Shown: positions 40,280-64,000 of the stretch, piece by piece | Layout: each line of letters starts with the position of its first letter | Position numbering within the stretch: the stretch's first letter is position 1 | Source of the DNA: Dipteris shenzhenensis | Lineage: Eukaryota | Length of the DNA stretch: 64,000 nucleotides | Assembly: GCA_047967505.1 (NCBI GenBank) | Contig: CM106538.1 | Reading direction: 5' to 3' (one strand) | Notes under the pieces: model-generated | The model's input: only the letters and a program-made list of their open reading frames with translations | Databases searched by the model: none | Told to the model about the DNA's origin: nothing | Program-made: the position numbers and the translations under genes

Positions 40280-40653
40280 AAAGCCAATGTATTTCTTGTA
40301 GCACAAGCACCTACCATTTCACTGACTAAGAATGAAGTAAGAGAAACACAAATCTTGTAAGATAGGACAGTGTAGAGTGGCACACACACACACACACAAC
40401 TTGCAACGGGCGGTCTCAAAACAGTCTCAAAGCAACAATACATTTCTTACAGTACAAGCATCTCTACCATTTCTTTGAGAGAGAAAGAAGTATGAGAAAC
40501 ATAGAGCTTGTAAGATCACACACATACACACACACACAGATTGTAGCCGGCGGTCTCAAAATAGTCTCAAAGCAACAATACATTTCTTACAGTACAAGCA
40601 TCTACCATTTCTTTGAGAGAGAAAGAAGTATGAGAAACATAGAGCTTGTAAGA

Positions 40654-40689
<36 letters not shown>

Positions 40690-40930
40690 CTTGCAACGAT
40701 CTCAAAGGTAGTCTCAAAGCAGCCAATGCATTTCTTGCAACACAAGCAATTACCATTTCGCTGATGAAGAAAGAAGTACAAGAAACACAGATCTTGTAAG
40801 ATACCACACACACACACAGCTTGTAGCAGTCTCAAAGCATTTCACTTATAGAGAAGTACGAGAAACACAGAGCCTATAAGATAAGATAGCACATGCATGC
40901 ACACACACACACACACACACAGAGCTTGCA
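40280..40930. repeat. Minisatellite of ~140-bp units, each containing a variable (CA)n tract
   Basis: gtctcaaagca.caat.catttctt.ca..acaagca...gagaaaca.aga.cttgtaagat...(ca)n recurs 4-5 times. Confidence 0.8.
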
Positions 40931-41093: not shown

Positions 41094-41874
41094 CACATTG
41101 GGAAAAAAGGGAGCTCATTTTGGGGCCCTGAGAGAAATTCACAATTTCTTCATTTTTATTTCCTCTAAAACACCAAAATACGACATAACTCCTTCGACGC
41201 ACGATGCAAAATTTGGTACTTCTGACATCACCGGCACATCCGGAGCGGGCCAAAACCCCTAGAACAACTTTTGAAACACTCAAGGGTGCTCATTTTCAGT
41301 GTTTTAAATGTCGTTCCAGGGGTTTTGGCTCGTCCAGAAAAGGCCACAAAGACCCTGCAAAGTTTTTACGGGGCCTTTTTAGCCTTTTTCAGGCCTCCAG
41401 GTGCCCGTTTTCAGAGTTTCAAATGTTGTTCTGAGGGTTTTGGCCCATGCCAGTAATGTCCAGAGCGGGCCAAAACCCCTAGAACGACTGTTAAAACACT
41501 GAAAACGGGCCTCCGGATGCTCATTTTCAGTGTTTCAAATGTCGTTCCGGGGGTTTTGGCTCGTCCAGAAAAAGGCCAAAAAGGCCCTGCAAAGTTTTTA
41601 CGGGGCCTTTTTAGCCTTTTTCAGGCCTCCAAGTGCCCGTTTTCAAATGTTGTTCTGAGGGTTTCTGCCCACGTCGATGATGTTAAAAGTACCGAATTCT
41701 GCACCGTGCGTCAGATATAATAAAGTAGCTCAAGTATCCTCGTTGAATGCAAACTTGACATAATTTCTTTTTTCTTCCTTTTTTGTGTTATGTTGGCCCT
41801 CCTTTGATTAGTGGACGGCTATTTTCCTTCCAGGCTAAAAGGCCCCAAAATGAGTTTCCTTTTATCCTAATGTG
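41094..41874. mobile_element. Non-autonomous TIR DNA transposon, CACTA/CMC-like (CACAT termini, 3-bp TSD GGA), 781 bp
   Basis: Left end cacattgggaaaaaagggagctcattttggggcc versus reverse complement of the right end cacattaggataaaaggaaactcattttggggcc. GGA flanks both ends (41091-93, 41875-77). Subterminal inverted repeat at 41197-41234 / 41675-41712 and an internal ~230-bp tandem duplication. Confidence 0.8.
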
Positions 41875-43646: not shown

Positions 43647-45665
43647 CTATGCTTGTTCCTTCACTCTCCTTGCCTCAACCTTGTTCTTGTCCTCTTCCAT
43701 ACGAGCATCTGCATAAATGTTAGACATCAAGACATAAGCTGTAGCATCCTTCTCATCCAATTGCACTGCATGTTCAAATGCCCGTCTTCCAAGCTCCACA
43801 TTACCCCACTTTCTACAGGCAGCCAACACAGTATGCCACACCACAAGATTAGGATGGAAAGGCATCTTCCTCACCATTCCTACTGCCTCATCTAATTGGC
43901 CTGCTCGGCCAAGGAGGTCCACCATACAAATGTGGTGCTCAATAGTCGGAGTGACGCCATAGTCTTTGCTCATAGAATCGAAGTACGTCTGTCCCTTATC
44001 CACTAGACCTGTGTGACTGCATACAGTGAGAACACCAACAAATGTGACCCCATTTGGCTTTATGCCCTCTCCTCTCATTCTCTCAAGCATATGGAAAACA
44101 GCTTCACTTTTTCCTAGCTGGGCATACCCGACAATTAGTGCTGTCCATGAGACTACAGTTCGAACAGTAAGCTTGCCAAACACTTCCTGCGCTTCTGCAA
44201 GCAAGCCACATTTGGCATACATATCAACCAAGGTGCTGCCAACAAGAAGATCTCCTTCCAACGCCATTCCAAAAATCTTAGCATGTATTTCTTGGCCCTT
44301 GTCTAAGGCTCCTGTGCTGCCACAAGCTTTCAAGCTGCAAACTAATGAGAGCACATTTGGAGTGACACCCTCCAAGTGCATTTGTTCAAAACACTTCATT
44401 GCTTCCTCACCAAGCCCATAGTCAGCATATCCTGCAATCAGGGCAGTCCACGTCACTACATCTCGAACTGGAAGCTTGTCAAACACTTCCTGTGCTTTTG
44501 CAAGCGAGCCACATTTAGCATACATATCAACCAAGGTGTTACCAACAACAAGATTTCTTTCCAACCCCTTTCGGGCAATCTCAGCATGTATTTCTTGGCC
44601 CTTGTCTAAGGCTCCAATGCTGCCACAAGCTTTCAAGTTGCAAACTAGCGCGAGAGCATTTGGGGACACGCCCTCCAGTTGCATCTGTTCAAAACAGTCC
44701 AGAGCTTCCTCACCAAGCCCATGTTCAGCATATCCTGCAATTAGTGCAGTCCATGAGACTACATCTCGAATCGGGAGCTTGTCAAACACTTCCCATGCTC
44801 TTGCAAACGAGCCACCTTTGGTATACATATCAACCAAGGTGCTGCCCACAAAAGTCTCCCTTTCCAACCCGTTTCTGGCAATTTCAGCATGTATTTCTTG
44901 GCCCTTGTCGAGGGCTCCTACGCTGCTACAAGCTTTCAAGCTGGAAACAAACGTGACAGCATTTGGAGTAATGCCCTGCAGTTGCATCTGTTGGAAACAG
45001 TTCAGTGCCTCCTCACCATGTCCATGTTCAGCATATCCTGCGATTAGTGCAGTCCATGAGACTACATTTCGAACTGGCTGCTTGCCGAACACTCCTCGTG
45101 CTTCATCGAGCAAGCCGAATTTGGCATACATATCGACCAAGGTGCTGCCAACAAAAAGATCTCTTTCCAACCCCTTTCTAGCAATCTCAGCATGTATTTC
45201 TCGGCCTCTTTCCACATTTTTTAGTCCAATACAAGCCTTTAGTAGGGCCACAAACGTATACTCACTAGGATCTACACGATCATCTTGCATTTTTTGGTAC
45301 AGGTTGAGGGCTTGCTGTGATTCACCACGATGAATATAACCCCTGATGAGAGAATTCCACGAATACTCATTCCGATTAATCAACCCGTCAAAAACCTGCC
45401 GAGCATCGCAGATGCTTCCAACTTCCACCAACAATGGAACGAGGTGATTTCCAAGTGATCTATGAGCTTCCAGCCCATTTTTGCACATGTACTCGTGTAG
45501 GCGCTTGGCACATTGCAGATTTTTCTTTTTCCTGCAGTTCTGCAAGAGGCACGTAAAGTTCTCAACCGAAGGCGTCATGGGCATTCGCTCCAAAGAAGTG
45601 ACTGCCTCCTCGAAGGTCAGCATCTTCCAGCATGCTGTCTCACAATTATCGTGCTTTAGGTGCAT
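43647..45665 (-). CDS. PLS-class pentatricopeptide repeat protein with E1/E2 domains (organellar RNA-editing factor type)
   Basis: 672-aa intact ORF with repeated P-L-S triplets (VVSWTALIAGYAEHG / LKACGSIGALDKGQEIHAEI / VGSTLVDMYAKCG), L2/S2 motifs (VTFVGVLTVCSHTGLVDKG, HHICMVDLLGRAG) and E motifs (VWHTVLAACRKWGNVELG, YVLMSNIYA). No obvious transit peptide after the first ATG, so the true start is uncertain. Confidence 0.92.
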   Translation of the reverse strand: MHLKHDNCETACWKMLTFEEAVTSLERMPMTPSVENFTCLLQNCRKKKNLQCAKRLHEYMCKNGLEAHRSLGNHLVPLLVEVGSICDARQVFDGLINRNEYSWNSLIRGYIHRGESQQALNLYQKMQDDRVDPSEYTFVALLKACIGLKNVERGREIHAEIARKGLERDLFVGSTLVDMYAKFGLLDEARGVFGKQPVRNVVSWTALIAGYAEHGHGEEALNCFQQMQLQGITPNAVTFVSSLKACSSVGALDKGQEIHAEIARNGLERETFVGSTLVDMYTKGGSFARAWEVFDKLPIRDVVSWTALIAGYAEHGLGEEALDCFEQMQLEGVSPNALALVCNLKACGSIGALDKGQEIHAEIARKGLERNLVVGNTLVDMYAKCGSLAKAQEVFDKLPVRDVVTWTALIAGYADYGLGEEAMKCFEQMHLEGVTPNVLSLVCSLKACGSTGALDKGQEIHAKIFGMALEGDLLVGSTLVDMYAKCGLLAEAQEVFGKLTVRTVVSWTALIVGYAQLGKSEAVFHMLERMRGEGIKPNGVTFVGVLTVCSHTGLVDKGQTYFDSMSKDYGVTPTIEHHICMVDLLGRAGQLDEAVGMVRKMPFHPNLVVWHTVLAACRKWGNVELGRRAFEHAVQLDEKDATAYVLMSNIYADARMEEDKNKVEARRVKEQA

Positions 45666-47151
45666 TAACCTCTGGACCCAAAGCCCCCATCCGAAGCACG
45701 GTCTTTAGAGTTTGAGACCAAAGGCTGCTAAGACCCTCCTTTTTCTCAAGCAAGTCTTTAGCCCAACCTCGATTGTAGGAGCCTTCTATCCATGGCAATC
45801 AAATTAGGTTTGTCTAGTAAGATATACGAAGGATTCGTCAGACTTGTGTCGCACACCCTTTCGCCACTGGGGCAAAACCGTGAACTTTGACGTATTCCTT
45901 CCATAAGCCCTCGGTAATGGGCTCTGCCAACCATAGAAGAGCCAGCCGAAGAAGAAACTTCCACGACCGCTCCAGTGTTTGGGTAAATCACCCATGATGG
46001 AGCCTTGGGGGAGGCGATCGGGCCTGTGCAACGAGTAGGACGACCCGACACGGACATAGTCTATATGCACTGGTTCACTACTAACTTGGACTGCTATTTT
46101 GGATGTTTTTCATGGATGTTTTTCCCTTGGTGCATGGGATCAGGGGAAAATGAGACATGCTATAAAGGAAATGTCACATCAATGGTGTGGGAAGTAGCAC
46201 CTTGAGGTCTAGAGCATGGAGTGCTATTTCCCATGGTCCCACCCTATTTCCCAAGTATTTCCCCTTTGTTTCATCACGTGATTGTAGGTGAGGAAGGTTG
46301 AGTTAATTATGATATAAATTGGCTAAAAGTGCAAGAATGTCCTTCAATTTTTTTGTCTTGAAATGAAGCAGAGTGGTGACTAAATTAGCACAATTTTTAA
46401 TTCAAATGGTATATAGTTATCAATTACCTACTGGAAGAGCTTGGGGCCATAGCTCTAGGAATGGGCCTAAGATGATCTCAATGCGGTGGACTATTTAAAT
46501 GGGAGCAATACTTCTTACCCAATGCCAAAGGTGTATGATAGGGTGACTTTGTAGATGTTTGAGGACAAAAAGGCCCCTAGGCCAGGTTGTTAACTCCTAA
46601 TTTCTAAAAGCACTTTTGGGATATCATTGGACAAGGCTATATTGAGAGTCTGAGATGATAAGACATGCTTGTAGCCAAGGAGTTTAAGGCTCAATTAGTA
46701 ATATGGATCTACTTAGGTCTACTCATACACAATCTTTTGAGTGGTGGCCTATTATTGTTCTCGAAATATTTGCCAAAGCTTTAGTTGTCGCAGTAAAGTT
46801 ACTTTTGCAAGATTGGTTAGAGAGCAAATGGGTTATGTATATAAGGTGTACATAATGGAAAATGCTTCGGATGTGCGACTGTGGCTTTAGATTATGTGTG
46901 GCTATGGCTTCAAATTATGCCTTCAAGAATAGCATGTCTGACTTTGGAAAATACTTCGGATGTGTGATTGTAGCTTTAGATTATGCCTTCAAGAATAGGA
47001 GGAAGAACTAGAAAAGGCTTATGACTAAAGGCGATAGGATTTAAGGTGCTCTAGAAAATTAGGTTTCCTCCAAAAGAATTGTCAAATGTTAACCCCTTGT
47101 TAGGGAATGCAAGGGCACTTGTGTGCATTAAGGGATGCCAAAAGCTATTTC

Positions 47152-47276
47152 CATTGGTGATCAAGGTTATCATAAGTGGATATAAAACTTTACATTGGTG
47201 ATCAAGGTTATCATAAGTGGATATAAAACTTTACATTGGCGATCAAGGTTATTGTAAGTGGATATGAAACTTTACA
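47152..47276. repeat. 41-bp tandem repeat x3
   Basis: cattggtgatcaaggttatcataagtggatataaaacttta at 47152, 47193 and 47234. Confidence 0.9.
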
Positions 47277-48127
47277 AACTAGTTTTGAGTAAAGTACTTG
47301 CTAATGACTTCCTTGTATTTTTTAACAATTTGGTTCAAAAATTCTACTTTGTATCACGATTTGTATGCAATATAAACAAGAGTGCATGACTGCACAAAAG
47401 CACTGGCTTCGGCTACATTAAGGTTCTATCCAAAAGAAATTTAAAAACAATTTCCGCACCCATGTAGTTGAAAAAATGCATTAAGGTTACTTCAAATTGG
47501 GTAGCTTCTACTTAACCCTAAGAGACCCACACTGATGGCTCTCTAAATTTCAGAGTCCTTGGTATTTCTTTATTATTTCATTCATTGCTCACTCACTATA
47601 CTTCATAGTTCCTTCTTTCGTCATGGAGCACATAACTACTTCCTTAAAATGAAACTTGGATCTTACCTTTTAATGAAATTTTCCTAAAGGGAAAAAACTT
47701 GAGTGAAAAAAATAATGAACATGAGACATGACACAGGTTCTATCAAAAACCTGATCCTCTCTGCAAATGTCAGAGGTAACCTCTCATCGAGAACATGCAT
47801 CAAAAGAGAGGAATGTTGTAAGACATCAAATTGAAGTAACATAAAAATTATTAGGGTCCATTAGTATTACAAAGAGGTCTTTTGAATAGATGGCACGCTA
47901 GCATATTACCTGAAAATTAGTAGTCGTATTCATACTACAATTTGAAAAATCAATATCTTGCACACACCAGTCATATAGGTTTCTTTGACTTTTTACAAGC
48001 ATGAAAAAATACATTAAAAATAGAAGGTGAAAAATCGACTCTTTGGATGAACGTAGAAGTAAAACCTTTCTTAGTAAATTGAATGATTCAAAATATGCAA
48101 AGAATGAGAATAAACAATATCTAATAC

Positions 48128-50842
48128 CTAGAATGGCAAGAACCGTGGATGAGATGGCTGCCATAGATTATCAATATGTAAGTTTGCAAGGTAGTTGGCA
48201 GAATAGCTTTTTTGGCAGTATATTGTTTTGTGAACTAGCTTTTTTGGCAAAACAACTTTTGGGGGCAGAGCAACATTTTTCAATGCATCACCACCCGTTT
48301 GTATGAAAGGTAGAATGAAGCTCTTCCAATCATACATTCTTTCAAGCCTCTCACATACTGTACTTTCCTTACGACCATCAACTTGCCTGCCACATCTTCT
48401 TACCAAGTCATCTATTGTCTCCACATCCTTGCATTTAAGCTCCCTTGAGACTGTGCTAAAAACCTGATCGATATCCTCATGTGTATGCCCAACATACAAA
48501 AATCCACATTCGACCTCATTGAAGATTCGATGAGCAACTAGCATGGAGCAGAATGCAAACGTGAGTACATTCTTATTTTCTCACCAGCAATTATCAGCTT
48601 GTATTCTCAAAGTCGGTGGTAGGCAACCTTTTTCTGCATGTACATTGTGAATTGCCTTCATAATAGATGTTACAACTTGATTGCTATCATGTAGATGCAA
48701 GGAATCAATCCATATCTCTGCAAAGAACTTAATTCCATGCACTAACACTCCACATAGATGTGTCTTTAGAAAGTGCTTTCCTTGTAATTTAGGTGGAGTG
48801 GCAACAAAACGAGGCAATGTTGTTGTATTCTGATCCATGCCATCTACAATAAGGCACATGTAGTCATCGGAATGCGAAATAGCTTGCTCCTTCCAAAAAG
48901 CATATTTTTGTCTGGAATGTCGAATAAGGTCATGATGAGATTTTTGGTTTTTTTTGTATAATTCCCTTTGATTTGGACATGTTGCACTCTCAATCGCTCG
49001 CTTTAAATCATCACAGACATTGCACTTTGACATTTTTTGCCTCCTTGGGATTTTAACATATCCAAAGTTCTTCTTCCAAAGAGTATACAAAGTATGAGAA
49101 GAAGCTACGGCATCCCCTCTTTGCCTTTGCTTTTCTGCAATAGAGTCAAATACTTCGAGCTTTGTCAGGCCCATTGGAAGGTGCATTTCGGTGATCGTGT
49201 CACCGTTAGGGAGTTTGGTAGATATATGGGGTTGAGGTAAAGCATTTTCATGTATGAAGTCTTGCAAAATTGCTGCTGCCCTGACAGTTGAGATTCTTGA
49301 TTTGGACCTTCCTCTATTACCGTGAATGCTAAATTTGTTGCCGCCCTTTGCCTTGGTGACTAAATCCCAATATGTACCATGGAATAATCCAGTAATATTG
49401 TGATATGCCTTATTGGAAATCCTTTTTCCATTTACGAGAGGTTTTACCTTTTGTCTTGAACTTAGCCTTTTATTGCCATTCTGAAGAAAGCAAGAGAGAC
49501 TTGTGAGAAGGTATTCATTTCTTTTGCTTCCTCTTCTTTGCCACATGTGTCCTCTACATTCCCTGATGTCTGCAAGATCAATGAAGCGCATACATCTTCG
49601 CTTGCAACATAGATATCCCAATGCATTTAACATGTTCTCCTCCTTCATTACTCTCTTCCTCTTTGGTTGCTTTTGTGGATCTGCCTAGATTCGCTTTCTC
49701 TTCATGCATATCTATTACCGTTTTTGTTCCTCGTGCACGTTGTTATCTGTATTTATGCACTTCTTCTCCTCACATTTGTTTGTAACCAAGCATCCATGAT
49801 TGGTCGTTGCATCCTTGGCCATATCACAATCAAAGTTAAATATTGAATAATCCTCTGTTGATCTCATCCTCGTTTTTAACATACTCTTAGGACCATTCAA
49901 TGAATTCAATATTCTACGAGAGTATTGAGAACCTTGAAACTCTTCCACTCCTGAGAGAACATCACTCATTGGGACATCTTGCATGGCTTTCACAAATCCA
50001 CAAGCTTGATTGACACCAGGTTTGTTAATATGCATGAACTCATCCACACTTGACAAGACATCGCTATTGAAACCTTTGCCCTTCTCACTGTGCAAGAATT
50101 CATCCACCCCAGATAAGGCTTCGCTTCTAAAATCATTTTGTTTCTCGGAACCAATGAACTCATCCCCTCCAGATAAGATGTCACTTCTATAATTGAGTAC
50201 ATTGAAATCATGCACATTTGAAGTGATAGAGCCTACCACATGGGCATGCTTTTTAGGTCCTTTGATATTGTAGTATACCTTGTCTTTATCATTGAAAACC
50301 ACGTGCCTCTTTCTCATGTTTAAAAATTGCATGCTCCATCTCATATTCTTGTCTACCTCATAGTAGGGATCACATAAGGATATTATGTTATCAACCATAC
50401 CGTCATCAGTGACTTTTAGAATCCTCATTTGTGCAAATGACCATTGTTCCACTTGTTCAAATCCCAATACTTCACCTTCTGCTACAGTATTATTTGCAAA
50501 TGATCTCATTTGTAAAATGTCCCCTATAGTAAAATCCAAGGTGGTGCACTTTGTATTCTTGATAATGTCTGTTGCATATGTCTCATCTTTGTCCCATGCT
50601 ATAAATGATTTGTTGGATGTATTGTAGGGCATAACATCTCCAAGTGTTTCCATATCTCCACATTTATACTTTAGCTCAACATGTGCGCTAAGAATCTTTG
50701 ATACAATAACTGCCACCTTATCTTCACCAAGTCTTCGAAAGTGGCAAACTGAATTGGGATCACTATCATGGATTGTAGCAAATGCAACTACTCTTTTGCT
50801 ACATAAAATCACATCCATCCCTGGAACAAAATCTATAGCCAT
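48128..50842 (-). pseudogene. Stop-interrupted DNA transposase, Sola-like/DUF7869 DD[D/E] core with N-terminal Tnp1/En/Spm-like domains
   Basis: Track ORFs 49715-50866, 48581-49648 and 48128-48544 are all in one frame, separated only by TAA/TAG/TAG and one TGA. Core motifs: KCNVCDDL, LIVDGMDQ, THLCGVLVHG, LPPTLRIQADNCW*ENKN, FLYVGHTHEDIDQVFS. First ATG at 50842. The C-terminus after ~48270 looks truncated. Confidence 0.75.
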
Positions 50843-51374
50843 CTCCTTTGTAAGAGTCCTTCGCAAGCAAGCTGCAGTAACAACAATTACATAAATATTA
50901 GTCTCTTTTTAATAATCTACTCATTTATTATAATTCTTAATTAGTAATTAATTTATTGGTGGGAGAAGTTATCTGATCAACTACTCATTAGATGGACATG
51001 CCAAGTTATCCTTTGCATGTTCAATCGAGCATTAAATACTATTTTTGCTCTAGTGTCGTGGCAAACTGAATTGGGATCACTATCATGGATTGTAGCAAAT
51101 GCAACTACTCTTTTGCTACATAAAATCACATCCATCCCTGGAACAAAATCTATAGCCATCTCCTTTGTAAGAGTCCTTCGCAAGCAAGCTGCAGTAACAA
51201 CAATTACATAAATATTAGTCTCTTTTTAATAATCTACTCATTTATTATAATTCTTAATTAGTACTTAATTTATTGGTGGGAGAAGTTATCTGATCAAGTA
51301 CTCATTAGATGGACATGCCAAGTTATCCTTTGCATGTTCAATCGAGCATTAAATACTATTTTTGCTCTAGTGTC
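50741..51374. repeat. Near-perfect 317-bp tandem duplication spanning the transposase start and the array edge
   Basis: gtggcaaactgaattgggat...tttttgctctagtgtc at 50741-51057 and 51058-51374. Confidence 0.95.
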
Positions 51375-54300
51375 ATGCACATCCGTAAAAAAACACACTG
51401 CTAGGTATGTTATCCGATCAAGCACTTATGGGATGGGCATGCCACTTTGCATGTAAGTCAATTCCACCTAGTTGAAGGTGTGTGCAAAGTATTGTGCCCA
51501 TCGGATATGCTTTTCATTGTCCATCAAGCATAAAACACCGTTTTTAGCTTAGTGTCATGCACAACCATGAAAAAACACGGTCCTAAGTGTCTTAATCAAA
51601 CAAGTACTTATCAGATGGGGGCTCCACTTTTCATGCAAGTCCTTTTTAACTAGGTTGAGATGCATACAAAGTATTGTCACCATCAGATCTACTCTGCATG
51701 GTCGATTACGCATTATACAACGTTTTTCCCGTAGTGATATGCACATCCACAAAAAAACACGCCCTTAGGTATGTTATCTGACCAAGTACTTATCGGATGG
51801 GTGTGCCTCTTTGAGAAAATTTCAATACCACCTAGGTTAAGGTGTAGGAAAAGTATTGTTCCCATCGGATATGCTTTGCATGGTCGATCGACCATTAAAT
51901 ACCATTTTTGCCTAAGTGTCATGCACCTCCGTAAAAAAACACGATGCTAGGTGTGTTATCCGATCAAGTACTTATGCGATGGGAATGCCACTTTGCATGT
52001 AAGTCAATTCCACCTAGTTGAAGGTTTGTGCAAAGTATTGTGCCCATCGGATATGCTTTTCATTGTCGATCAGGCATAAAACACCGTTTTTGCCTTAGTG
52101 TCATGCACAACCATATAAAAACACAGCCCTAGGTATGTTATTCAAACAAGTACTTATCGGATGGGGGCTCCACTTTGCACGCAAGACCATTTCAACTACG
52201 TTGAGGTGCGTGCAAAGTATTGTCACCATCGAATATGCATTGCATGGTCGATCATGCATTATACACCGTTTTTTCCCTAGTGATATGCACATCCGCTTAA
52301 AAAAATGCCCTTAAGTGTGTTATCTGACCAAGTACTTATCCGATGGGTGTGCCACTTTGAGAACATTTCAATACCACCTAGGTTGAGGCATAGGAAAAGT
52401 GTTGTGCCCATCGAATATCCTTTGCATGGTCGATCGAGCATTAAATACTATTTTTGCTCTAGTGTCATGCACATCCGTAAAAAAACACACTGCTAGGTAT
52501 ATTATCTGAAAAGCACTTATGGGATGGGCATGCCACTTTGCATGTAAGTCAATTCCACCTAGTTGAAGGTGTGTGCAAAGTATTGTGCCCATCGGATATG
52601 CTTTGCATTGTCGATCAAGCATAAAACACCGTTCTTGCCTTAGTGTCATGCACAACCATGAAAAAACACGGTCCTAGGTGTGTTAATCAAACAAGTACTT
52701 ATCGGATGGGGGCTCCACTTTGTATGCAAGTCCTTTTCAAATATATTGAGGTGCGTGCAAAGTATTGTCACCATCAGATATGCTTTGCATGGCCGATCAC
52801 GCATTATACAACGTTTTTCCCCTAGTCATATGCACTTCCGCAAAAAAACACGCTTCCAGGTATGTTATACGATCAAGCACTTATGGGATGGGTGTGCCAC
52901 TTTGCATGTAAGTCAATTCCACCTAGTTGAAGGTTTATGCAAAGTATTGTGCCCATCGGATATGCTTTGCATTGTTGATCAAGCATAAAACACCATTTTT
53001 GGCTTAGTGTCATGCACAACCATGAAAAAACACGGTCCTAAAAGTGTTAATCAAACAAGTACTTATCGGATGGGGGCTCCACTTTTCACTCAAGTCCGTT
53101 TCAACTAGGTCGAGATGCGTGCAAAGTATTGTCACTATCGAATATGCTCTGCATGGTCGATTACGCATTATACAACGTTTTTCCGTAGTGATATGCACAT
53201 CTACAAAAAAACATGCTCTTAGGTATGTTATTTGACCAAGTACTTATCAAATGGGTGTGCCTCTTTGAGAACATTTCAATACCCACTAGGTTAAGGTGTA
53301 GGAAAAGTATTACACCCATCGGATATGCTTTGCATGGTCGATCGAGCATTAAATACCATTTTTGCCATAGTGTCATGCACATCCGTAAAAAAACACGCTG
53401 CTAGGTGTGTTATCCGATCAAGTACTTATGCGATGGGAATGCCACTTTCCATGTAATTCAATTCCACCTATTTGAAGGTGTGTGCAATGTATTGTGCCCA
53501 TCAGATATGCTTTGCATTGTCGATAAAGCATAAAACACCGTTTTTGCCTTAGTGTCATGCACAATCATGAAAAAACATGGCCGTAGGTGTGTTATTCAAA
53601 CAAGTACTTATTGGATGGGGGCTCCACTTTCCATGCAAGTCCGTTTCAACTACGTTGAGGTGCATGCAAAGTATTGTCACTATCGAATATGCTTTGCATG
53701 GTTGATCACGCATTATGCACCCTTTTTTCCCTAGTGATATGCACATCCCCAAAAAAATGCACCCTTAGGTGTGTTATCTGACCAAGTACTTATCGGATGG
53801 GTGTGCCTCTTTGAGAAAATTTCAATACCACCTAGGTTGAGGTGTAGGAAAAGTGTTGTGTCCATCGGATATCCTTTGCATGGTCGATCGAGCATTAAAT
53901 ACTATTTTTGCTCTAGTGTCATGCACATTCCTAAAAAAACACGCTGCTAGGTGTGTTATCCGATCAAGTACTTATGCGATGGGAATGCCACTTTGCATGT
54001 AAGTCAATTCCACCTAGTTGAAGGTGTGTGCAACGTATTGTGCCCATCAGATATGCTTTGCATTGTCGATCCAGCATAAAACACCGTTTTTGCCTTAGTG
54101 TTATGCACAACCATATAAAAACACGGCCGTAGGTGTGTTATTCAAACAAATACTTATCAGATGGGGGCTCCACTTTGCAGGCAAGTCGGTTTCACTACGT
54201 TGAGGTACGTGAAAAGTATTGTCACCATCGGATATGCTTTGCATGGTCGATCACGCATTATACACCGTTTTTCCCCTAGTGATATGCACATCCGCAAAAA

Positions 54301-57300
54301 AACACGCCCTTAGGTGTGTTATCTGACCAAGTACTTATCGGATGGGTGTGCCTCTTTGAGAACATTTCAATACCACCTAGTTTGAGCCATAGGAAAAGTG
54401 TTGTGCCCATCGGATATCCTTTGAATGGTCGATCGAGCATTAAATACTATTTTTGCTCTAGTGTCATGCACATCCGTAAAAAAACACGCTGCTAGGTATG
54501 TTATCCGATCAAGCACTTATGGGATGGGTGTGCCACTTTGCATGTAAGTCAATTCCATCTAGTTGAAGGTGTGTGGAAAGTATTGTGCCCATCGGATATG
54601 CTTTGCATTGTCGATCAAGCATAAAACACTTTTTTTGGCTTAGTGTCATGCACAACCATGAAAAAACACGGTCCTAGGTTTGTTAATCAAACAAGTACTT
54701 ATCGGATGGGGGCTCCAGTTTGCACGCAAGTCTCTTTCAACTAGGTTGAGATGTGTGCAAAGTATTGTCAAGATCGGATATGCTCTGCATGGTCGATTAC
54801 GCATTATACAACGTTTTTCCCGTAGTGATATGCACATCCGTAAAAAAACACGCCCTTAGGTATGTTATTTGACCAAGTACTTATCGAATGGGTGTGCCTC
54901 TTTGAGAACATTTCAATACCACCTATGTTAAGGTGTAGGAAAAGTATTGTGCCCATCAGATATGCTTTGCATGGTCGATCGAGCATTAAATACCATTTTT
55001 GCCTTAGTGTCATGCATATTCGTAAAAAAACACGCTGCTAGGTGTGTTATCCGATCAAGTACTGATGCGATGGGAATGCCACTATTCATGTAAGTCAATT
55101 CCACCTATTTGAAGGTGTGTGCAACGTATTGTGCCCATCGGATATGCTTTGCATTGTCGATCAAGCATAAAACATCGTTTTTGCCTTAGTGTCATGCACA
55201 ACCATATAAAAACACGGCCGTAGGTGTGTTATTCAAACAAGTACTTATCGGATGGGGGCTCCACTTTGCAGGCAAGTCAGTTTCACTTGCATTGAGGTGC
55301 GTGCAAAGTATTGTCACCATCGGATATGCTTTGCATGGTCGATCATGCATTATACACCTCTTTTTACCTAGTGATATGCACATCCACAAAAAAACACGGC
55401 CGTAGGTGTGTTACATTCAAACAAGTACTTGTCGGATGGGGGATCCACTTTGCACGCAAGTCCATTTCAACTACGTTGAGGTGCGTGCAAAGTATTGTCA
55501 CCATCGGATATGCTTTGCATGGTCGATCGCGCACTATACACCATTTTTTCCCGAGTGATATGCACACCCGCAAAAAAACACGCCCTTAGGTGTGTTATCT
55601 GACCAAGTACTTATCGGATGGGTGTGCCTCTTTGATAACATTCCAATACCACCTAGGTTGAAGCATACAAAAAGTATTGTGCCCACCGGATATCCTTTGC
55701 ATGATCGATCGAGCAATAAATACTATTTTTACTCTAGTGTCATGCACAGCTGTAAAAAAACACGCTGCTAGGTATGTTATCTGATCAAGCACTTATGGGA
55801 TGAGAGTGCCACTTTTCATACAAGTCAATTCCACCTAGTTTAAGGTGTGTGCAAAGTATTGTGCCCATCTGATATGCTTTGCATTGTCGATCAAGCATAA
55901 AACAATGTTTTTGCCTTAGTGTCATGCACAACCATGAAAAAACACAGTCCTAGGTGTGTTAATCAAACAAGTACTTATCGGATGGGGGCTCCACTTTACA
56001 CGCAAGTCTGTTTCAACTACGTTGAGGTGCATGCAAAGTATTGTCACCATCGGATATGATTTGCATGGTCGATCACGCATTATACACAGTTTTTTCCCTA
56101 GTGATGTGCACATCCGCAAAAAAACATGCCCTTAGGTGTGTTATCTGACCAAGTACTTATCGGATGGGTGTGCCTCTTTGAGAACATGTCAATGCAACCT
56201 AAGTTGCAGTTTAGGAAAAGTATTGTGCCCATCGGATATCCTTTGCATTGTCGATCGAGCATTAAATACTATTTTTGCTCTAGTGTCATGCACATCCGTT
56301 AAAAAAACACGTTGCTAGGTATGTTATCTGATCAAGCACTTATGGGATGGGTGTGCCACTTTGCATGTAAGTCAATTCCACCTAGTTGAAGGTGTGTGCA
56401 AAGTATTGTGCCCATCGGATATACTTTGCATTGTCGATCAAGCATAAAACACCGTTTTTGGCTTAGTGTCATGCACAACCATGAAAAAAGACGGTCCTAA
56501 GTGTGTTAATCAAACAAGTACTTATCAGATGGGGGCTCCACTTTTCATGCAAGTTCGTTTCAACTAGGTTGAGATGCGTGCAAAGTATTTTCACCATCGG
56601 ATATGCTCTGCATGGTCGATTACGCATTATACAACATTTTTCCCATAATGATATGCACATCCGCAAAAAAGCACGCCCTTAGGTATGTTATCTGACCAAG
56701 TACTTATCGGGTGGGTGTGCCTCTTTGAGAACATTTCAATACCACCTAGGTTAAGGCGTAGGAAAAGTATTGTGCCCATCGGATATGCTTTGCATGGTTG
56801 ATCGAGCATTAAATACCATTTTTGCCTTAGTATCATGCACATCCATAAAAAAACACGCTGCTAGGTGTGTTATCTAATCAAGTACTTATGCGATGGGAAT
56901 GCCACTTTGCATGTAAGTCAATTCCACCTAGTTGAAGGTGTGTGCAAGGTATTGTGCCCATCGGATGTGCTTTGCATTGTCGATCAAGCATAAAACACCG
57001 TTTTTGCCTTAGTGTCATGCACAACCATATAAAAACACGGCCGTAGGTGTGTTATTCAAACAAGTACTTATCGGATGGGGGCTCCACTCTGCACGCAAGT
57101 CCGTTTCAACTAGATTGAGGTGAGTGCAAAGTATTGTCACCATCGGATATGCTTTGCATTGTCGAACAAGCATTAAACACTATTTTGGCCTTAGTGTCAT
57201 GCACAACCGTCAAAAAATGCGGTCCTAGATGTGTTATTCGACTAAGAACTTATGGGATGGGCACGCCACTTTGCATGTAAGTCAATAATACCTAGGTTGA

Positions 57301-57374
57301 GATGTGTGCAAAGTATTGTGGTGCTCGGATATGCGTTGCATTGTCGATTAAGCATAAAACAATGTTTTTGCCTT
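51369..57374. repeat. Satellite-like tandem array: 33 monomers of 181-184 bp (mostly 182) with higher-order structure
   Basis: The anchor agtg(tc/at)atgcac recurs at 51369, 51551, 51733, 51915, 52097, 52279, 52461 ... 56829, 57011, 57193. Three monomer types cycle A-B-C. Confidence 0.97.
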
Positions 57375-58199
57375 TGAATAAAAGCACAGTTGTTGTATGA
57401 CCACAATAGGATCACTTTGACACCTGTGATTTTGCCCACATGTAAGTTTGCAAATAGTATAAAAAATAATATATTAATATATTAATAGTTTGCAAATGTG
57501 TATAGCAAGTGAGTAATGGGAAGTGAAAGTGGGAGTGAGGAGGGAGGAGTGGAATGGGAGAGGGAAGTAATAGGGGTGTCTGATAATAAGTATAAAAAAT
57601 AGTATAATAATATATTAATAGTTTTCAAATGGCAAGTGAGTAATGGGAAGTGGAAGTGAGAGTGGGGAGGGAAGAATGGAATGGGAGAGGGGAAGGTAAT
57701 AGGGGAGTAGCATAATAGGGAGTAAAATGAGTGAGGGGAGTTAATAGGGGATGAAAAAGAGGAGGGTGAGATGGGGAAATATGGGATTTTGGGAAATGGG
57801 AGGAGTATGGGATGTGGTGGAAATGTGGGATGGGAGTGGTGGCAATGGGGGAGGAAGAAGAAATGGATGGGGGGAGGGCTAATGGAAGATTGGGATGAGG
57901 GATGGGGGTCCAATGAGAGAGGGGGAGTAATGGGAGCTAATGGGAGAGGGGAGAAATGAAAAGCCGATAGGAGAGAGGGGAGGAATGGAAAGCCAATAGG
58001 AGAGGAGGAGGAAAACCTAATTTTTCTTATATATAGTCTTCCTTCTTCATTCATTCTCCCCTCATTTCATTCATTGAAGCAAGAAAGCAAGGACGAGCAA
58101 GAAAGCAAGGAAGGAAGAGCAAGAAAGCAAGAAAGAGCAAACTTACAAACTTTTTCCAGGTACTTGCAAATTTTTTTGATTCATTCTTTATCTAGATTT

Positions 58200-59620
58200 T
58201 TTTTTTAAATTTTGAAGAGAGAGAAAGAAAGAAAGAGAGAGAGGAACTAGAGAGAGAGAGGCCCCCTGACGGCCTCCAGGACGGGAGGGGAAGGAGGGGA
58301 TGGAGGGGGGGGAAGGGAGGGAGGGGCGAGGGGCGGGGTCGAGGGAGGGAGGGGGGGGTTTTCTAGCGACCGCGGCCGCCAGGACCCCAAGGAGGGGAGG
58401 GGGGGGGGGAGGGGGGGAGGGGGTTCTGGCGGCCACGGTGGCGGCCGCAAGGAGTGGATGGAGGGGGGGGAGGGGAGGGAGGGGCGAGGGGGATGTCTGG
58501 CAACTGCAAGGAGGGGATGGAGGGGGGGGAGGGGAGGGAGGGGCGGGGGGGATGGAGGGGATAGAGGGGGGGGGAGGGGAGGGAGGGGGTGGGGGGGAAG
58601 GGAGGGGTTCTGGCAACCGCAGCCGCTAGGACCCTCCCCTCCCCTCCCCCCCTGGAAGGGTCCTGGCGGCCACAGCCACCAGAACCCCAAGGAGGGGGGG
58701 GAGGGGAGGGGGGGGAGGGGAGTCGGGGAGGGAGGGAGGGGAGGGGAGGGAGGGGTGAGGGTGGGGTTGAGGGAGGGAGGGAGGTGGGGGGGTTCTCGCG
58801 GCCGCGGCTACCAGGACCCTCCCAGGGGGGGAGGGGAGGGGAGGGAGGGGGTGGGGGGGGAGGGGAGGGAGGGGGTGGAGGGGGGGGGTTTCTGGCGGCC
58901 GTGGCTACCAGGACTCTCCCAGGGGGGGAGGGGAGGGAGGGGGTGGGGGGGGTTCTCGCGGCCACCAGAACCCCAAGGAGGGGGAGGAGGGGAGGGGAGG
59001 GGGGGAAGGGGAGCCGGGTAGGGAGGGGGGGGTTTCTAGTGGCCGCGGCCGCCAGGACCCCAAGATGGAGGGGGGGAGGGGAGGGAGGGGCGAGGGCGGG
59101 GTCGAGGGAGGAAGGGAGGGAGGAGGGGGTTCTGGCGGCCGTGGCCGCTAGGACCCCAAGGAGGGGATGGAGGGGGGAGGGGCGGGGGGGATGGAGGGGA
59201 TGGAGAGGGGGGGGTTCTAGTGGCCGTGGCCGCCAGGACCCCAAGGAGCGGAGCGAGGGGATGAGGGAAGGGGGGGGTAGAGGGAGGGGATGGAGGAAGG
59301 GAGGGGATGGAGGGGGAGGGGCGTCCTGGCGACCACGGCCGCCAGGACGAGAGGGAGGGGAGGCGAGGGAGAGAGAGAGGGGAGGGGAGGGAGAGAGAAA
59401 GGGAGAGGAGGGAGGGGAGAGGAGGGAGCGGAAGGAGAGAGAGGGAGACAGAGAGAGGGAGGGGAGAGGAGGGAGTGGAAGGAGAGAGAGGGGAGAGGAG
59501 GGAGGGGAGGGAGAGAGAGAGTGAGGGGAGGGAGAGAGAAAGCAAGAGAGAGAGTGAGGGGGGAAGGTATGGGAGAGAGAGAGAGAGTGAGGGAGAGAGA
59601 AGCGAGGGAGTAGAGGGAGT
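58200..59620. repeat. G/A-rich low-complexity tract punctuated by GC-rich palindromes
   Basis: Runs of G3-G9 separated by A, interrupted about 11 times by variants of ggggt(t/c)ctggcggccgtggccgccaggacccc. Confidence 0.9.
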
Positions 59621-59639
59621 AGAGGGAGAGAGGTCGAAT

Positions 59640-60100
59640 TCTTATAAGAGCGACAAATAAGATTTGACTTAGGAAAAGAATGAAAGGGACTTACGAGAAG
59701 AAAGTATCAAGAAGAATGTTGAACACAAATTTGAATTCTTACAACTAAGAGTAGAACTATCACGAGCTCTTCAATACAAATTTGAATTCTTACAACTAAA
59801 AGTAGAACTATCACGAGCAAGAGCGACAAATAAGATTCTTGCTCAAGTAAGATTTGACTTATTATCATGAGCAAGAGCGACAAATAAGATTTGACTTACT
59901 ATCACGAGCAAGAGCGACAAATAAGATTTGACTTACTATCACGAGCAAGAGCGACAAATAAGATTTGACTTACGAGAAGAATGAAAGGGACTTACGAGAA
60001 GAAAGTATCAAGAAGAATGTTGAATACAAATTTGAATCCAAAAGGAACGTACGAGAAGAAAGTATAAGAAGAATGTTGAACACAAATTTGAATTCAAATT
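59640..60100. repeat. Nested short tandem repeats (37-bp ctatcacgagcaagagcgacaaataagatttgactta and related units)
   Basis: The unit is repeated 3-4 times at 59808-59972, with flanking duplicated acgagaagaaagtatcaagaagaatgttgaa.acaaatttgaat. Confidence 0.85.
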
Positions 60101-60469
60101 TATAATGAATTCAAATTTCCCTCTCTTTTTTGAAAATTCAAATTTATGCATGGGAGGAGTGGGCTAGTTTTTCTTATATATACTTTTTCCAGGTACTTGC
60201 ATTCTTTTTCATTCGTCTTGTAATTCTTTTTCCTTACTTACAATTCTTTTTCAATTAGTTTCTTGTTAATGTTTTTGAGTTCTATTTCTTAAAATTCGTC
60301 TTGTAATTCTTTTTCTTTACTTACAACTCTTTTTCAATTAGTTTATTGTTAAAGTTTTTGAGGAGGGGGGTTTTTAAGAAGGCATTATAATTCTTTTTAA
60401 ATTAGTTTCTTATTTGAGTTTTTGAGTTCTATTTTAATTAGTTTCTTATTTATATTTGAGTTTGTAAAT

Positions 60470-60823
60470 TTGAGAAATGAGAGAGAATAGGGAGGGAGAG
60501 AAAGAGAGAGGAGAGAGGGAAAGAGAGAAATTAAGAGAGAGAAGAGGGGCTCTTGGCGGCCGTGGCCGCCAAAGGGAGAGAGAGAATAGAAATGAGAGAG
60601 AGAATGAGAAATGAGAGAGGAGTAGGGAGGCAGAGAAAGAGAGAGAGGAGAGAGGGAGAGAGAGAGAGAGATTCACAGAGAGAAGAGGAGATTCTTAAAT
60701 GAGAGAGAAGAGTAGGGAGGGAAAGAAAGAGAGAGGAGAGAGGGGGAGAGAGATTAAGAGAGAGAAGAGGGTCTCCTCGCGGCCATGGCTGCTAAAGGGA
60801 GGGAGAGAGTAGGGAGAGAGAGG

Positions 60824-60867
<44 letters not shown>

Positions 60868-61369
60868 TAGGGAAAGAGAGAGAGGGAGAGAGAGAGAAAG
60901 AGAGAGAGGGAGAGAGAGGGAGAGAGAGAGAAGTTTAAGAGAATGAATCTTGGCGAGAGGAGAGAGGGAAAGAGAGAAATTAAGAGAGAGAAGAGGGGCT
61001 CTTCGGGGCTGTGGCCACCAAAGCGAGAGAGAGAATGAGAAATGAGAGAAAAGAGTAGGGAGGGAGAGAAAGAGAGAGAGGGAGAGAGACAAGAGATTAA
61101 GAAAGAGAAGAGGGGCTCCTTAAATGAGAGAGAAGAGTAGGGAGGGAAAGAAAGAGAGAGTCGAGAGAGGGAGAGAGAGAAGAGAGTCTCCTGGCAGCAA
61201 TGAGAGAGAAGAGTAGGGAGGGAAAGAAAGAGAGAGTTGAGAGAGGGAGAGAGAGATTAAGAGAGTCTCCTGGCGGCCGTGGCTGCTAGAGGGAGGGAGA
61301 GAGTAGGGAGGGAGAGGGAGAGAGAGAGAGAGAAGAGAGGAGGGAGACTTAGGGAGAGAGAAAGAGAGA

Positions 61370-61426
<57 letters not shown>

Positions 61427-61535
61427 AGAGAGGGAATGAAACTTCTGTGCTAGAGGGAGGGAGAGAGTAGGGAGGGAGAGGGAGAGAGAGAGAGAGAGAA
61501 GAGAGGAGGGAGGCTTAGGGAGAGAGAAAGAGAGA

Positions 61536-61572
<37 letters not shown>

Positions 61573-61850
61573 GAGAGAAGAGAGGAGGGAGACTTAGGGA
61601 GAGAGAGATAAAGAGAGAGGGAGAGAGAATGAAACTTCTAGCAGCCGTGGCTGCCAAGAGAGGGAGGTAGAGAGAGAGAGAGAGAGAGAGACTTCTCGTG
61701 GCCATGGCCGCCAAGGGAGGGAGGGAGGGGGAGGGAGGGAGGAAGATTGAGAGAGATTAAGAGAGAGAATTTAGAGAGAGAGAGACATAGAGAGGGAAAG
61801 AATGACAAATCCTAGCGGCCAAGAGGATAGAGGTAGGGAGGTAGAGAGGC

Positions 61851-61901
<51 letters not shown>

Positions 61902-62173
61902 GAAGAGGAGAGAGAGAGAGAGAGGAGAGAGATGGAGAGAGAGAAATAATTACAAATCCTAGGGAGAGAGAGAGAGAGAGAGAGATAAAGAGAGAGAATG
62001 AAAAATGTTAGCCCCCATGGGAGGGAGAGAAAGAGAGACTTGAGATAAACTAAGAGAGAGAATGAGTGGGATGAGGACAGAGAGGGAAACACATAAGAGT
62101 TGTTAGAGAGAGAGAGAGAGATTAAGAGAGAGAATGAGGTGTCTTGACTATGGCTACAGAGAGAATTAGGAGT

Positions 62174-62215
<42 letters not shown>
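60470..62215. repeat. (GA)n-rich low-complexity region with further degenerate palindromes
   Basis: The plus strand is almost purine-only. ggcggccgtggccgcc variants occur at ~60555, 60780, 61005, 61272, 61640 and 61700. Confidence 0.9.
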
Positions 62216-63371
62216 TAAAAAGAGGGTTTTATATATTTACATGTTTTATATTATACTTTTAAAAAATTATAAAAGAGTGAATTTATGGTTTGTTTTGAAG
62301 GTGAGATAATATTTTTATATATATTCATCTTTTAAGTTGAAAAATGTTAACTTTTCTTTAGATACTTGTTCTTCATTTCTCTCACATGCAGGTTTAGCCT
62401 CTACATCAAAACCCCTTCTTTTGCATATTTAAGCCTCTTAAATCCCAGCACATTAAAATGAACACAAAAAAATAAATTATTTATTCCTTTTCTTCGCTTC
62501 GACGGTTGGTTTAGCATAGTTTAGCATAGAGATTGCCTTAGAGGAGAGACAATTCTCCAAGTTGCCAATCGAAGCCATGCTCAAATTTTTCTAACTAGTT
62601 CCTAATCGTTGTCAGTCCCTTCGCTCACATGCAGTTTAACACTCATAACATGCTATTAAATGAGACCTTTTACCATTTACCAAGAAGTTTATCAGTGGGC
62701 AGATTGCATGAGCAGATATCAGTGGACAGATTACATATATCAGTTGACAGATTACATGTCATGGGACATATTGGAGCTTGATGATTATTGGTTATTTTTA
62801 TTGCATTTGTATAAATATTTAAGCTCATTTATTGTCATAAAAAACCTTGTAAAGCCTTCTATGCTATTTTTTACATTTATTGTCATATGAAGCGCCTTGT
62901 AATAAACCCAACCATTCACTATTTAACGAGTATTAGTGGGCTGCATAAGTGGATATCATGTGGGCTGCATAAGTGGATATCAGTGGAACAATTTTTAGTG
63001 TGGGTAGATTGCATCAGTTGGGTATCAGTGCACAGATATCAATGGATGGATAGATTACATGTCATCACGAAGATTGAAGCTTTATGACTAGAGGGCAAAT
63101 CAATGGATGGACAGATTACATGTCTTCACGAAGATTGAAGCTTTATCACTAGACGACATTTTATATTATTGTAAAGCTTTATTGGCTAATTTTTTACATT
63201 TGTACAAATATTTAAGCCTTGTAAAGCCTTCTAGGCTATTTCCCACATTTATTGCCATATGAAGCCTTGTAAAGCCTTTTGGGCTATTTCCCACATTTAT
63301 TGTATCAAGCGTTGTATATTCTACTTTACTTGTATGTATCTAAATTCTTCATTATCTTTTCTTGTACGATT

Positions 63372-63995
63372 ATGGAGTAATCAACTAATGTGGGGGCTAT
63401 CCTAAATGACTCTGAGATCAGAGAATGGGTCTCTGATGTCACTTTGAATTTGAAAGGAAAGGAGTATAGCCCCAATGGCTTTAGTGGGTGGACTCGATAT
63501 CACATGGACAGAAGAGCTTGGTTTCGTCATCAAAAGGAAAAGAGACTCTTTCTACTTATGTCAAAAAGGGAGTTCACTGATGTTGAAGATCCATGGGATG
63601 CTACTTTCTTCAAAAAAGATATGACTTCAAGCCTTGTAGTAGGCATAATGATAGAGCCAAAAGAGACTTTTATGGATATTTTTACAAAGAGTTCAGATCC
63701 TGAAGTTGGCGGTCTTCATTTTGTTGTGTCAAGGAGAGAATCAAAGACCTTTGTGATGCCTCCTCCTCAACCATCAAAGTTTCCAGAGCTGCAAAGTGCA
63801 TTGGAGGCTCTTTCATATACTTGGGAGCAATTTCCTAGTGTGGGGGCAAAAAGGATGCATGCAAAGATAATGTTTGAGTACTTTCAAGATGCACAAAATC
63901 TCCTCATATTCAAGGATCTTCACATGAAGGAGATCAAAAAGCTCATACTTCAATGCAGGGACAAGAAGAACAGGCACACTGTCACAAACATGTAG
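63372..63995 (+). pseudogene. ORF of unknown function (probably transposon accessory gene), possibly continuing beyond the window
   Basis: 201-codon open frame with protein-like composition. An in-frame ATG GAG TAA lies 18 nt upstream of the GTG track start, suggesting a CAA>TAA lesion. No family recognised. Confidence 0.45.
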
Positions 63996-64000
63996 GACAT

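Follow-up and report, generated by a model that had tools for sequence, protein, structure and literature searches.

The 64,000-nucleotide stretch of Dipteris shenzhenensis DNA analysed here (NCBI GenBank assembly GCA_047967505.1, contig CM106538.1; hereafter the window) closes with a block of about 16 kb, from position 48,128 to 64,000, that an initial annotation had interpreted as a single giant composite DNA transposon. The four parts on which that interpretation was built, namely a transposase gene, a hairpin satellite array, a purine-rich field with palindromes and a plus-strand open reading frame (ORF), were all found in the block, and the two frames indeed diverge from the repeats between them, with the transposase on the minus strand and the right-hand frame on the plus strand. 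Their union into one mobile unit was not upheld: the module that precedes the ORF comes from another repeat family, no termini were found, and the relation between transposase and array narrows to a junction shared within a transposon family. We consider it probable that the block is a mosaic of separate repeats, in which the satellite array originated from a transposon in a manner resembling Tetris of Drosophila virilis.

The higher-order satellite and its junction with the transposase gene

The satellite array adjoins the 5′ end of the transposase gene. Tandem Repeats Finder (TRF) reported a period of 182 bp with 33.2 copies and 74% matches over 51,324–57,374, and the satellite DNA, including a diverged monomer at its left edge, spans 50,958–57,372 (6.4 kb). 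The identities of the monomers to one reference cycle with a period of three. Classification of 33 monomers revealed three types, A, B and C, which build higher-order units of ~545 bp and follow one another in the order ABCABCABABCABCABCABCABBCABCABCABA, with an identity of 0.88–0.89 within a type versus 0.72–0.76 between types. Likewise, sequence compared with a 545-bp probe is 88–96% alike in register and 73–79% alike off register. The ABC order and the likeness within types identify the array as a higher-order satellite shaped by unequal exchange. The initial annotation had described an array of 182-bp hairpin monomers; the period and the inverted repeats are present as described, but the true unit is the ~545-bp trimer.

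Most monomers carry an imperfect inverted repeat of ~29 nt with a 23-nt loop. When the monomers were folded as DNA and compared with mononucleotide shuffles, the mean z was −1.9 and the best −6.0, several B- and A-type monomers folding strongly and C-type monomers weakly. An Rfam search at E ≤ 0.1 returned 15 rows, all below the gathering score and none on the satellite, and no transfer RNA was detected. These results lend no support to the cis sites or the structured-RNA cassette that the initial annotation had suggested for the array and the palindromes.

To the left, the likely ATG of the transposase gene and the first monomer lie only ~115 bp apart, across an AT-rich leader. This edge monomer is 0.59–0.69 alike to the array types, more diverged than the types are among themselves, and its deletion, which takes out the hairpin core, is bordered on each side by a copy of a 9-nt direct repeat found in full monomers. 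Contigs of four public runs were compared with 45,700–51,057 at 80% likeness; two public runs contain 0.30 of the words sampled from 46,000–52,000. In two of the runs, X1 and X2, the junction was observed directly. X1 record 6 (50,766–51,057; 10 differences, 3 gaps) joins the 5′ end of the gene, the leader and the edge monomer, and X2 record 14 (50,773–51,019) likewise bridges the 5′ end of the gene into the edge monomer, both being ~96–97% identical to the window. Satellite-only contigs match 51,007–51,057, and left of 51,007 they carry ordinary monomer sequence; the edge monomer's left half is thus confined to the transposon. Since the junction is present in contigs of two runs, the link between transposase and satellite appears to be a family trait, and the association that the initial annotation had drawn from one locus extends beyond it. 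A shared junction with a transposon-specific half-monomer argues both against a chance landing and against repeated fresh insertion into ordinary monomers.

Contig depth, which does not equal copy number and serves as a hint only, was 24.9 (X1) and 11.6 (X2) at the junction, and 44–61 and 8–13, respectively, in the main gene contigs. The summed depth of the satellite-only contigs was 953.7 (X1) and 493.1 (X2), hinting at a satellite of far greater abundance than the transposase gene. The border itself is duplicated in the window: two copies of 317 bp (50,741–51,057 and 51,058–51,374) each contain the first ~168 bp of the gene, the leader and the edge monomer, which is thereby copied at 51,275–51,374. 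Their 99% likeness indicates that unequal exchange has been active at the border of gene and array and that this event is very recent.

A decayed and truncated DUF7869 transposase

The transposase lies in a minus-strand frame that runs from 50,908 to 48,128, starts at a likely ATG near 50,842 and holds four in-frame stops. In a Pfam scan at E ≤ 0.1, DUF7869 (PF25273; gathering cut-off, 26 bits) was matched twice, with E values of 9.6e-28 (97.5 bits) and 3.3e-13 (50.1 bits). The two pieces correspond to profile positions 3–69 and 71–162 of 192, and the TGA at 48,581–48,583 falls between them. No Pfam family scored above the cut-off in the N-terminal part, and the catalytic part matched DUF7869 only, with no CMC/CACTA transposase domain. 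The term DUF7869 was found in no paper of the literature searched. The label Sola-like that the initial annotation gave to this transposase is a candidate assignment.

A word-indexed search yielded 101 homologous proteins at E ≤ 1e-5 among 5,019 candidates, the best with 53% identity across 64% of the query. The closest homologues (37–53%) come from metagenome or ENA contigs. Those with an organism name are all from aquatic invertebrates (bivalves, amphioxus, sea urchin, acorn worm and coral), and none of the 101 is a plant protein, which could be due to plant annotation masking transposons or to horizontal transfer. The intact 367-residue piece matched eukaryotic clusters only in the Protein Atlas, with DUF7869 in 11% of the members of one cluster.

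Alignment with 13 relatives showed D281, G282, M283, D284, Q285, N365, E369–N372 and H400–I405 to be invariant, and D281 and D284 remain so with 47 relatives (48 sequences). The conserved motifs DGMDQ, DN..ENKN and GHTHEDID are invariant or nearly so. Among the acidic residues of the 14 sequences, D364 is near-invariant, E403 and D404 are invariant, and D406 is near-invariant; the third acidic position lies within GHTHEDID, where all three of its acidic residues are conserved and sequence does not decide between D and E. An AlphaFold model built on the alignment of relatives has a mean predicted local distance difference test score (pLDDT) of 81. In a structural search of this model against representative structures, residues 259–441 aligned with the catalytic domain of Mos1 (Z 10.4; root-mean-square deviation 3.2; 166 residues aligned), and the same core also aligned with retroviral integrase cores (Z 9.5–10.3), IstA, TnsB and Sleeping Beauty. 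Foldseek against the PDB gave no match at E ≤ 0.001. The RNase H-like core and the invariant acidic motifs together identify the protein as a DDE/D transposase of RNase H fold, in keeping with the transposase gene of the initial annotation, and no solved structure is closely related to it.

The N-terminal region at 49,870–50,200 on the minus strand encodes four acidic repeats of ~20 residues with the form S-D-x-L-S-G-V-D/E-E-F. Run contigs break or turn unlike the window at 49,869–49,971, which suggests that the number of acidic repeats varies from copy to copy.

The run contigs also reveal the decay of this copy. Over 48,280–50,792, X1 and X2 contigs differ from the window at 14–15 positions per ~930 bases (about 98.5% identity), and a second contig set over the gene is about 85% alike. 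Contig cover is absent from 45,700–47,668 in all runs and from 48,027–48,205 in X1, gaps that carry no evidential weight. The initial annotation had proposed looking for stop-free copies, and the contigs indeed read sense codons at all four stop sites (CGA, CAG, TCA and TAC). It had also explained the stops by C>T changes, which holds for two of them (CGA>TGA and CAG>TAG) but not for the other two, which are transversions (TAC>TAG and TCA>TAA). Among the 34 in-frame differences listed (210 further ones lie beyond these), 25 are non-synonymous and 9 synonymous, as neutral decay of the window copy predicts.

Several lines of evidence place the end of homology at 48,280. The X1 and X2 contigs go on unlike the window from 48,280 (X2, X1) and 48,285 (X1) for 110–114 letters, and their first in-frame codons past this breakpoint, G-H-T-N-P-H-Y-F-R, agree with G-x-T/S-x-P-H-x-F/M-R, the conserved block that follows in the relatives. 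In a profile hidden Markov model (HMM) of 47 relatives, window residues 5–470 correspond to nodes 59–504 of 688, and residue 469 is encoded at 48,278–48,280. With 11 relatives as tblastn queries, 9 of the 11 matches end at 48,263–48,293, and no match was found left of those ends. The DUF7869 match reaches only to profile position 162 of 192, the final 30 positions being gone, and the last 50 residues of the predicted model have pLDDT < 50. The start of the unit at 48,128, as initially annotated, must be abandoned: the last ~50 codons are unrelated, and 48,128 is simply the first stop encountered there. An earlier alignment (A1) had shown W508 as invariant, which would make the tail past 48,280 homologous; the profile HMM ruled this out.

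This copy lacks the C-terminal ~180 profile positions, a third of the protein, and the whole 3′ end of the element. Judged from these sequences, the window copy is dead and truncated, and better-preserved members of the family exist elsewhere. The loss of the 3′ end at 48,280 explains why no termini had been identified in the initial annotation. Within the window, the left flank forms no inverted repeat with any sequence to its right. The only pair that reaches outside the block, a 27-nt, 74% purine/pyrimidine match, was rejected as a terminal inverted repeat on account of its low complexity.

The purine field and the right-hand module

To the right of the array, the plus strand carries a purine excess from 57,373 to about 62,240, with a GC skew of up to +0.69. 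TRF resolves this field into many overlapping short-period repeats. For a 20-nt GC palindrome core, 11 sites (≤3 mismatches) were counted versus 0 expected, all within 58,363–61,714, so that the purine tracts with repeated palindromes that had been described are present. Units of ~85–97 bp, each a purine run with a palindrome, are visible at 58.7–59.3 kb and decay rightward into GA-rich sequence, and an AT-rich island with its own 37–56-bp repeats breaks the field at about 59,640–60,470. We infer that the field, which no feature links to the transposase or to the right-hand unit, is a separate decaying tandem repeat. At 58,632–58,655, its only switch from a G-rich to a C-rich strand, long G/C hairpins form. 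Fourteen of the 15 Rfam rows mentioned above are below-threshold animal microRNA-like hairpins at 58,575–58,716, which we regard as spurious.

The right-hand end of the block consists of a dispersed-repeat module followed by the plus-strand ORF, which we term the orphan ORF. By blastn, 62,444–62,630 is 74.5% identical to 35,222–35,414, the only recurrence of 45,700–64,000 elsewhere in the window. The homology extends to about 62,380–62,760 versus 35,150–35,540, begins abruptly at 62,380 and 35,150, and is followed by the same series of short motifs at both places. At 35 kb, the module immediately precedes a Copia gag that starts at 35,777, has a zinc knuckle and is followed by pol domains; no transposase, 182-bp repeat or purine field was found beside it. 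The kilobase upstream of the ORF comes from a repeat family other than that of the transposase. A tblastx comparison of the right-hand unit with the rest of the window recovered the non-coding module only.

The initial annotation had reported a block free of retroelement remnants. This is doubtful at the right end, where 62,380–62,760 matches sequence upstream of the Copia gag. Pfam and homologue searches found no gag or pol domains in 62,380–64,000, and the module, which recurs ahead of the gag at 35.15 kb, is all that connects this stretch with Copia.

The orphan ORF, which ends at a TAG five bases short of the window end, is longer than any frame that arose in simulated sequences of 1.75 kb and of 16 kb (300 of 300); at 64 kb, 2 of 100 simulations attained its length. 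A frame longer than chance points to coding sequence, and the ORF is probably coding now or was so recently. Consistent with its description as a plus-strand ORF without recognised function, the 204-codon frame matches no Pfam family, and no homologue was found among 49 word-sharing candidates or, at E ≤ 0.001, in 1.84 billion representatives. Bacterial sensor-domain clusters of the Protein Atlas share 120–138 of 256 features with it, a similarity that we take as chance.

Table 1 Coordinates of the features of the block.
Feature	Position	Strand	Basis
Open non-homologous frame tail	48,128–48,279	−	HMM, Pfam, contigs, pLDDT < 50
Transposase pseudogene, DUF7869 type, predicted DDE	48,280–50,908	−	Pfam, homologues, fold, run contigs
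Predicted catalytic core, residues 259–441 of P0001	48,362–48,910	−	Predicted model and structural search
In-frame stops	49,715–49,717; 49,712–49,714; 49,685–49,687; 48,581–48,583	−	Run contigs open at all four
Tandem duplication, 317 bp × 2, 99%	50,741–51,374		TRF and self-comparison
AT-rich 5′ leader, transposon-specific	50,843–50,957	−	Sequence inspection; bridged by X1 record 6 and X2 record 14
Edge monomer, diverged, without hairpin core	50,958–51,057	+	Sequence inspection, monomer comparison, run contigs
Satellite array, 33 monomers of ~182 bp, single orientation	51,353–57,372	+	TRF, in-register comparison
Purine-biased low-complexity field, tandem units of ~57–97 bp	57,373–62,240	+	GC skew, TRF, palindrome count
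Dispersed-repeat module	62,380–63,380	+	blastn, alignments A2 and A3
Orphan open frame, 204 codons, stop to stop	63,381–63,995	+	Frame list, Pfam, homologue searches

Origin of the block and its parallels

Based on these data, we propose that the block comprises at least three units. The first is a dead copy of a cut-and-paste transposon, the 3′ part of which was removed by a rearrangement at 48,280. A few subterminal 182-bp monomers would belong to this transposon, and unequal exchange in situ would have expanded them into the 6.4-kb ABC array, so that the relation would run from transposon to satellite; the 317-bp duplication may be a fresh trace of this expansion. On this view the array would have arisen as a side product of the transposon and would have no working role as a cis component of a 16-kb mobile unit. 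The purine/palindrome field would form the second unit, independent of the first. The third would be the 5′ part of another repeat, in which a module that is also present in the leader or long terminal repeat (LTR) region of a Copia element precedes the orphan ORF.

In its internal organisation, the array resembles alpha-satellite-type DNA, in which multimeric units form higher-order repeats. Its monomers are ~72–76% and its units ~88–96% alike, all in one orientation, and its irregular units (AB, BBC) are typical of unequal exchange. The likeness ends at the internal inverted repeat carried by the monomers of the window, and the array shows no sign of a centromeric location or function. Large DNA transposons of the CACTA/CMC type carry subterminal repeat arrays and accessory ORFs, which is reminiscent of the repeat blocks and second ORF seen here; however, the transposase of the window matches DUF7869 only, and no CACTA termini were found in the window.

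A closer parallel for the proposed origin is Tetris, described in excerpts of PMC4079207 as a foldback transposon of Drosophila virilis associated with the TIR-220 satellite, in which tandem repeats within the terminal inverted repeats can seed kb-size satellite arrays. Other relations between transposons and satellites have been published (excerpts of PMC5932611 and PMC12628747). In Tetris, repeats of ~200 bp located in the terminal region of the transposon also form kb-size arrays; in the present family, several copies have a monomer attached at their 5′ end, and a 6.4-kb array of this repeat adjoins the window copy. The two systems differ in several respects. Tetris is non-autonomous and holds its repeats within defined terminal inverted repeats, whereas the window element encodes its own transposase, its array has a three-monomer higher-order structure, and its host is a fern-grade plant.

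On the transposon side, the element is comparable to Sola, a superfamily reportedly due to Bao et al. (2009), in that both are cut-and-paste elements of eukaryotes whose transposases have an acidic triad. Sola1, Sola2 and Sola3 make up this DNA transposon superfamily (excerpts of PMC10741241 and PMC4455052), and the former source, in the part consulted, gives a DDD transposase, 4-bp target duplications, lengths of 2–9 kb or >15 kb, and terminal inverted repeats of 11–1,124 bp. Such sizes, and terminal inverted repeats that are variable and long, could accommodate terminal tandem repeats. Unlike these elements, the window copy has neither termini nor a target-site duplication. Among ferns, an excerpt of PMC6890710 tabulates 2,739 Sola elements in Ceratopteris (0.06%), and PMC6786969, likewise in excerpt, states that Azolla has more Sola than Salvinia. 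Relations between transposons and satellites and the occurrence of Sola in ferns are therefore already in print.

Distant relatives of the transposase were collected by a metagenome scan, which gave 80 loci, all 27–42% identical. The largest tandem block among them is 1.3 kb. At one locus (L016), a transposase fragment (2,666–3,601) lies between two blocks of ~147–150-bp tandem repeats in the same orientation (1,696–2,211 and 3,725–4,160), with a third, inverted block upstream at 104–553. L016, the only suggestive analogue among these loci, is a possible example, within this protein family, of terminal inverted repeats built from tandem repeats. Another locus, L015, has 22-nt inverted ends with AAAA on both flanks, which fits a 4-bp duplication but is weak evidence, and at L030 the inverted ends measure 34 nt and no clean duplication accompanies them. 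A 27-nt pair 9.3 kb apart at L044 was discarded as too weak. At L052 (1–4724), a 17-nt GC-rich palindrome occurs at 10 sites versus 0 expected; two of these lie within the coding match, and the palindromes are accordingly not specific to the ends. The same contig carries a sequencing-adapter-like 19-mer, inverted, at both ends.

Several points weigh against the proposed account. Only 13 of the 80 loci have tandem repeats (period ≥ 20, ≥150 bp), 7 upstream and 6 downstream of the transposase, and those of L046 are 87-bp coding repeats, like the four ~20-residue repeats of the window protein. The gene and the monomer are bridged by contigs of only ~290 bp, and an array inside every copy may be conceivable. 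The shared junction could also be explained by segmental duplication of a block comprising transposon and satellite. The window may itself come from the source of one of the two runs, whose support is therefore not fully independent; contigs lose rare variants, and their depth is not copy number. The read comparison covered 45,700–51,057, which takes in the transposase gene, the leader and the edge monomer. As for the third unit, no second module copy, which would be a 3′ LTR, was found after the Copia element, and a primer-binding-site motif occurs at chance level (5 matches versus 6.3 expected). The module is thus only a candidate retroelement sequence: it may belong to an LTR or a leader, or may be a small repeat in its own right.

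The strongest competitor, which we nonetheless judge unlikely, is a large element of 9–14 kb or more that unites the transposase and the array, perhaps with the purine field but without the ORF, its 3′ end having been lost. The array would then lie between a 5′ terminal inverted repeat and the gene and would move with the gene. Such an element would account for the junction common to family copies, and the gap of ~115 bp between ATG and monomer leaves little room for a separate 5′ terminus. L016, with its ~150-bp tandem repeats on both sides and inverted array upstream, fits as well, as do Sola elements, with lengths that can surpass 15 kb and terminal inverted repeats of up to 1,124 bp (PMC10741241, in excerpt). 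In X2, the junction depth of 11.6 is near that of the gene body (8.1–12.8), although depth is not copy number. Against these points, no terminus was found right of the array, and the ABC structure with its 88–96% unit identity is typical of free satellite evolution. The 6-kb array also far exceeds the 1.3-kb maximum in the 80 relative loci, and the satellite-only depth, a weak measure, stands at 953.7 versus ~60 in X1 and 493.1 versus ~15 in X2. A related and equally doubtful scenario is that of an intact, multi-copy DUF7869 family, possibly Sola, every copy of which would bring along 182-bp hairpin monomers or possibly whole arrays, placed between its end and the transposase gene, so that transposition itself would seed the abundant satellite at new sites and an autonomous DNA transposon would serve as the vehicle of a higher-order satellite.

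Less likely still is a pure juxtaposition, in which the transposon landed in or beside an array of an older genomic satellite and the junction was repeated through site-specific insertion into a monomer or through later segmental amplification. The much greater depth of satellite-only contigs compared with transposon contigs (again a weak measure) is compatible with this possibility, as is a higher-order structure that is independent of the transposon, and the 317-bp duplication demonstrates that local duplication can copy the junction. However, the neighbours of a fresh insertion into a living array should be ordinary A, B or C monomers, whereas the gene joins a diverged, hairpin-deleted monomer, the left half of which occurs only in gene-bridging contigs. 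Moreover, other copies are more complete, with open codons at the stop sites and a continued C-terminus, and are thus not duplicates of the window fragment.

The composite transposon of 16 kb or more, uniting transposase, array, palindrome field and ORF, is very improbable: contiguous parts, frames diverging from the repeat block, an orphan ORF longer than chance and the existence of large Sola elements (excerpt of PMC10741241) speak for it, but the ~1 kb before the ORF is a dispersed module whose other copy stands by a Copia gag, alone, the ORF has no homologue although the transposase has 101, no termini were found, and no such ORF was noticed in the 80 relative loci, where no search was aimed at it.

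If the link between transposon and satellite holds genome-wide, the family favoured here as the source of the array would be an autonomous plant DNA transposon from which an abundant higher-order satellite draws its building block, a relation documented mainly in insects and bivalves. A plant lineage would also offer an apparently intact DUF7869 transposase for investigation. The copy in the window is a dead fragment, and the main effect of the present analysis is a corrected annotation in which the giant composite transposon is not upheld.

The surroundings of the block are those of plant DNA by gene content. An EBP2 frame at 14,442–15,455 on the plus strand encodes an rRNA (ribosomal RNA)-processing protein in 337 codons with no interruption (Pfam E 1.9e-60), which would suit either an intronless gene or a processed retrocopy. 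Its closest named relatives, from Adiantum (62% and 56%) and Diphasiastrum (62%), point to ferns and a lycophyte, and identities of 62–67% to proteins of these groups were also recorded. An intact pentatricopeptide repeat (PPR) gene with an E motif occupies 685 codons at 43,647–45,704 on the minus strand, and the truncation point of the transposase lies ~2.6 kb to its right; the 303-bp tandem repeat that TRF reported at 44,132–45,206 is the PPR motif array of this gene. The Copia element itself is a decayed Ty1/Copia copy at about 35.8–39.8 kb on the plus strand. Just past its pol, in the position expected for a 3′ LTR, sit two further tandem-repeat blocks, one at 40,280–40,830 made of 138–148-bp units with CA microsatellites and one at 41,239–41,671 made of a ~220-bp pair.

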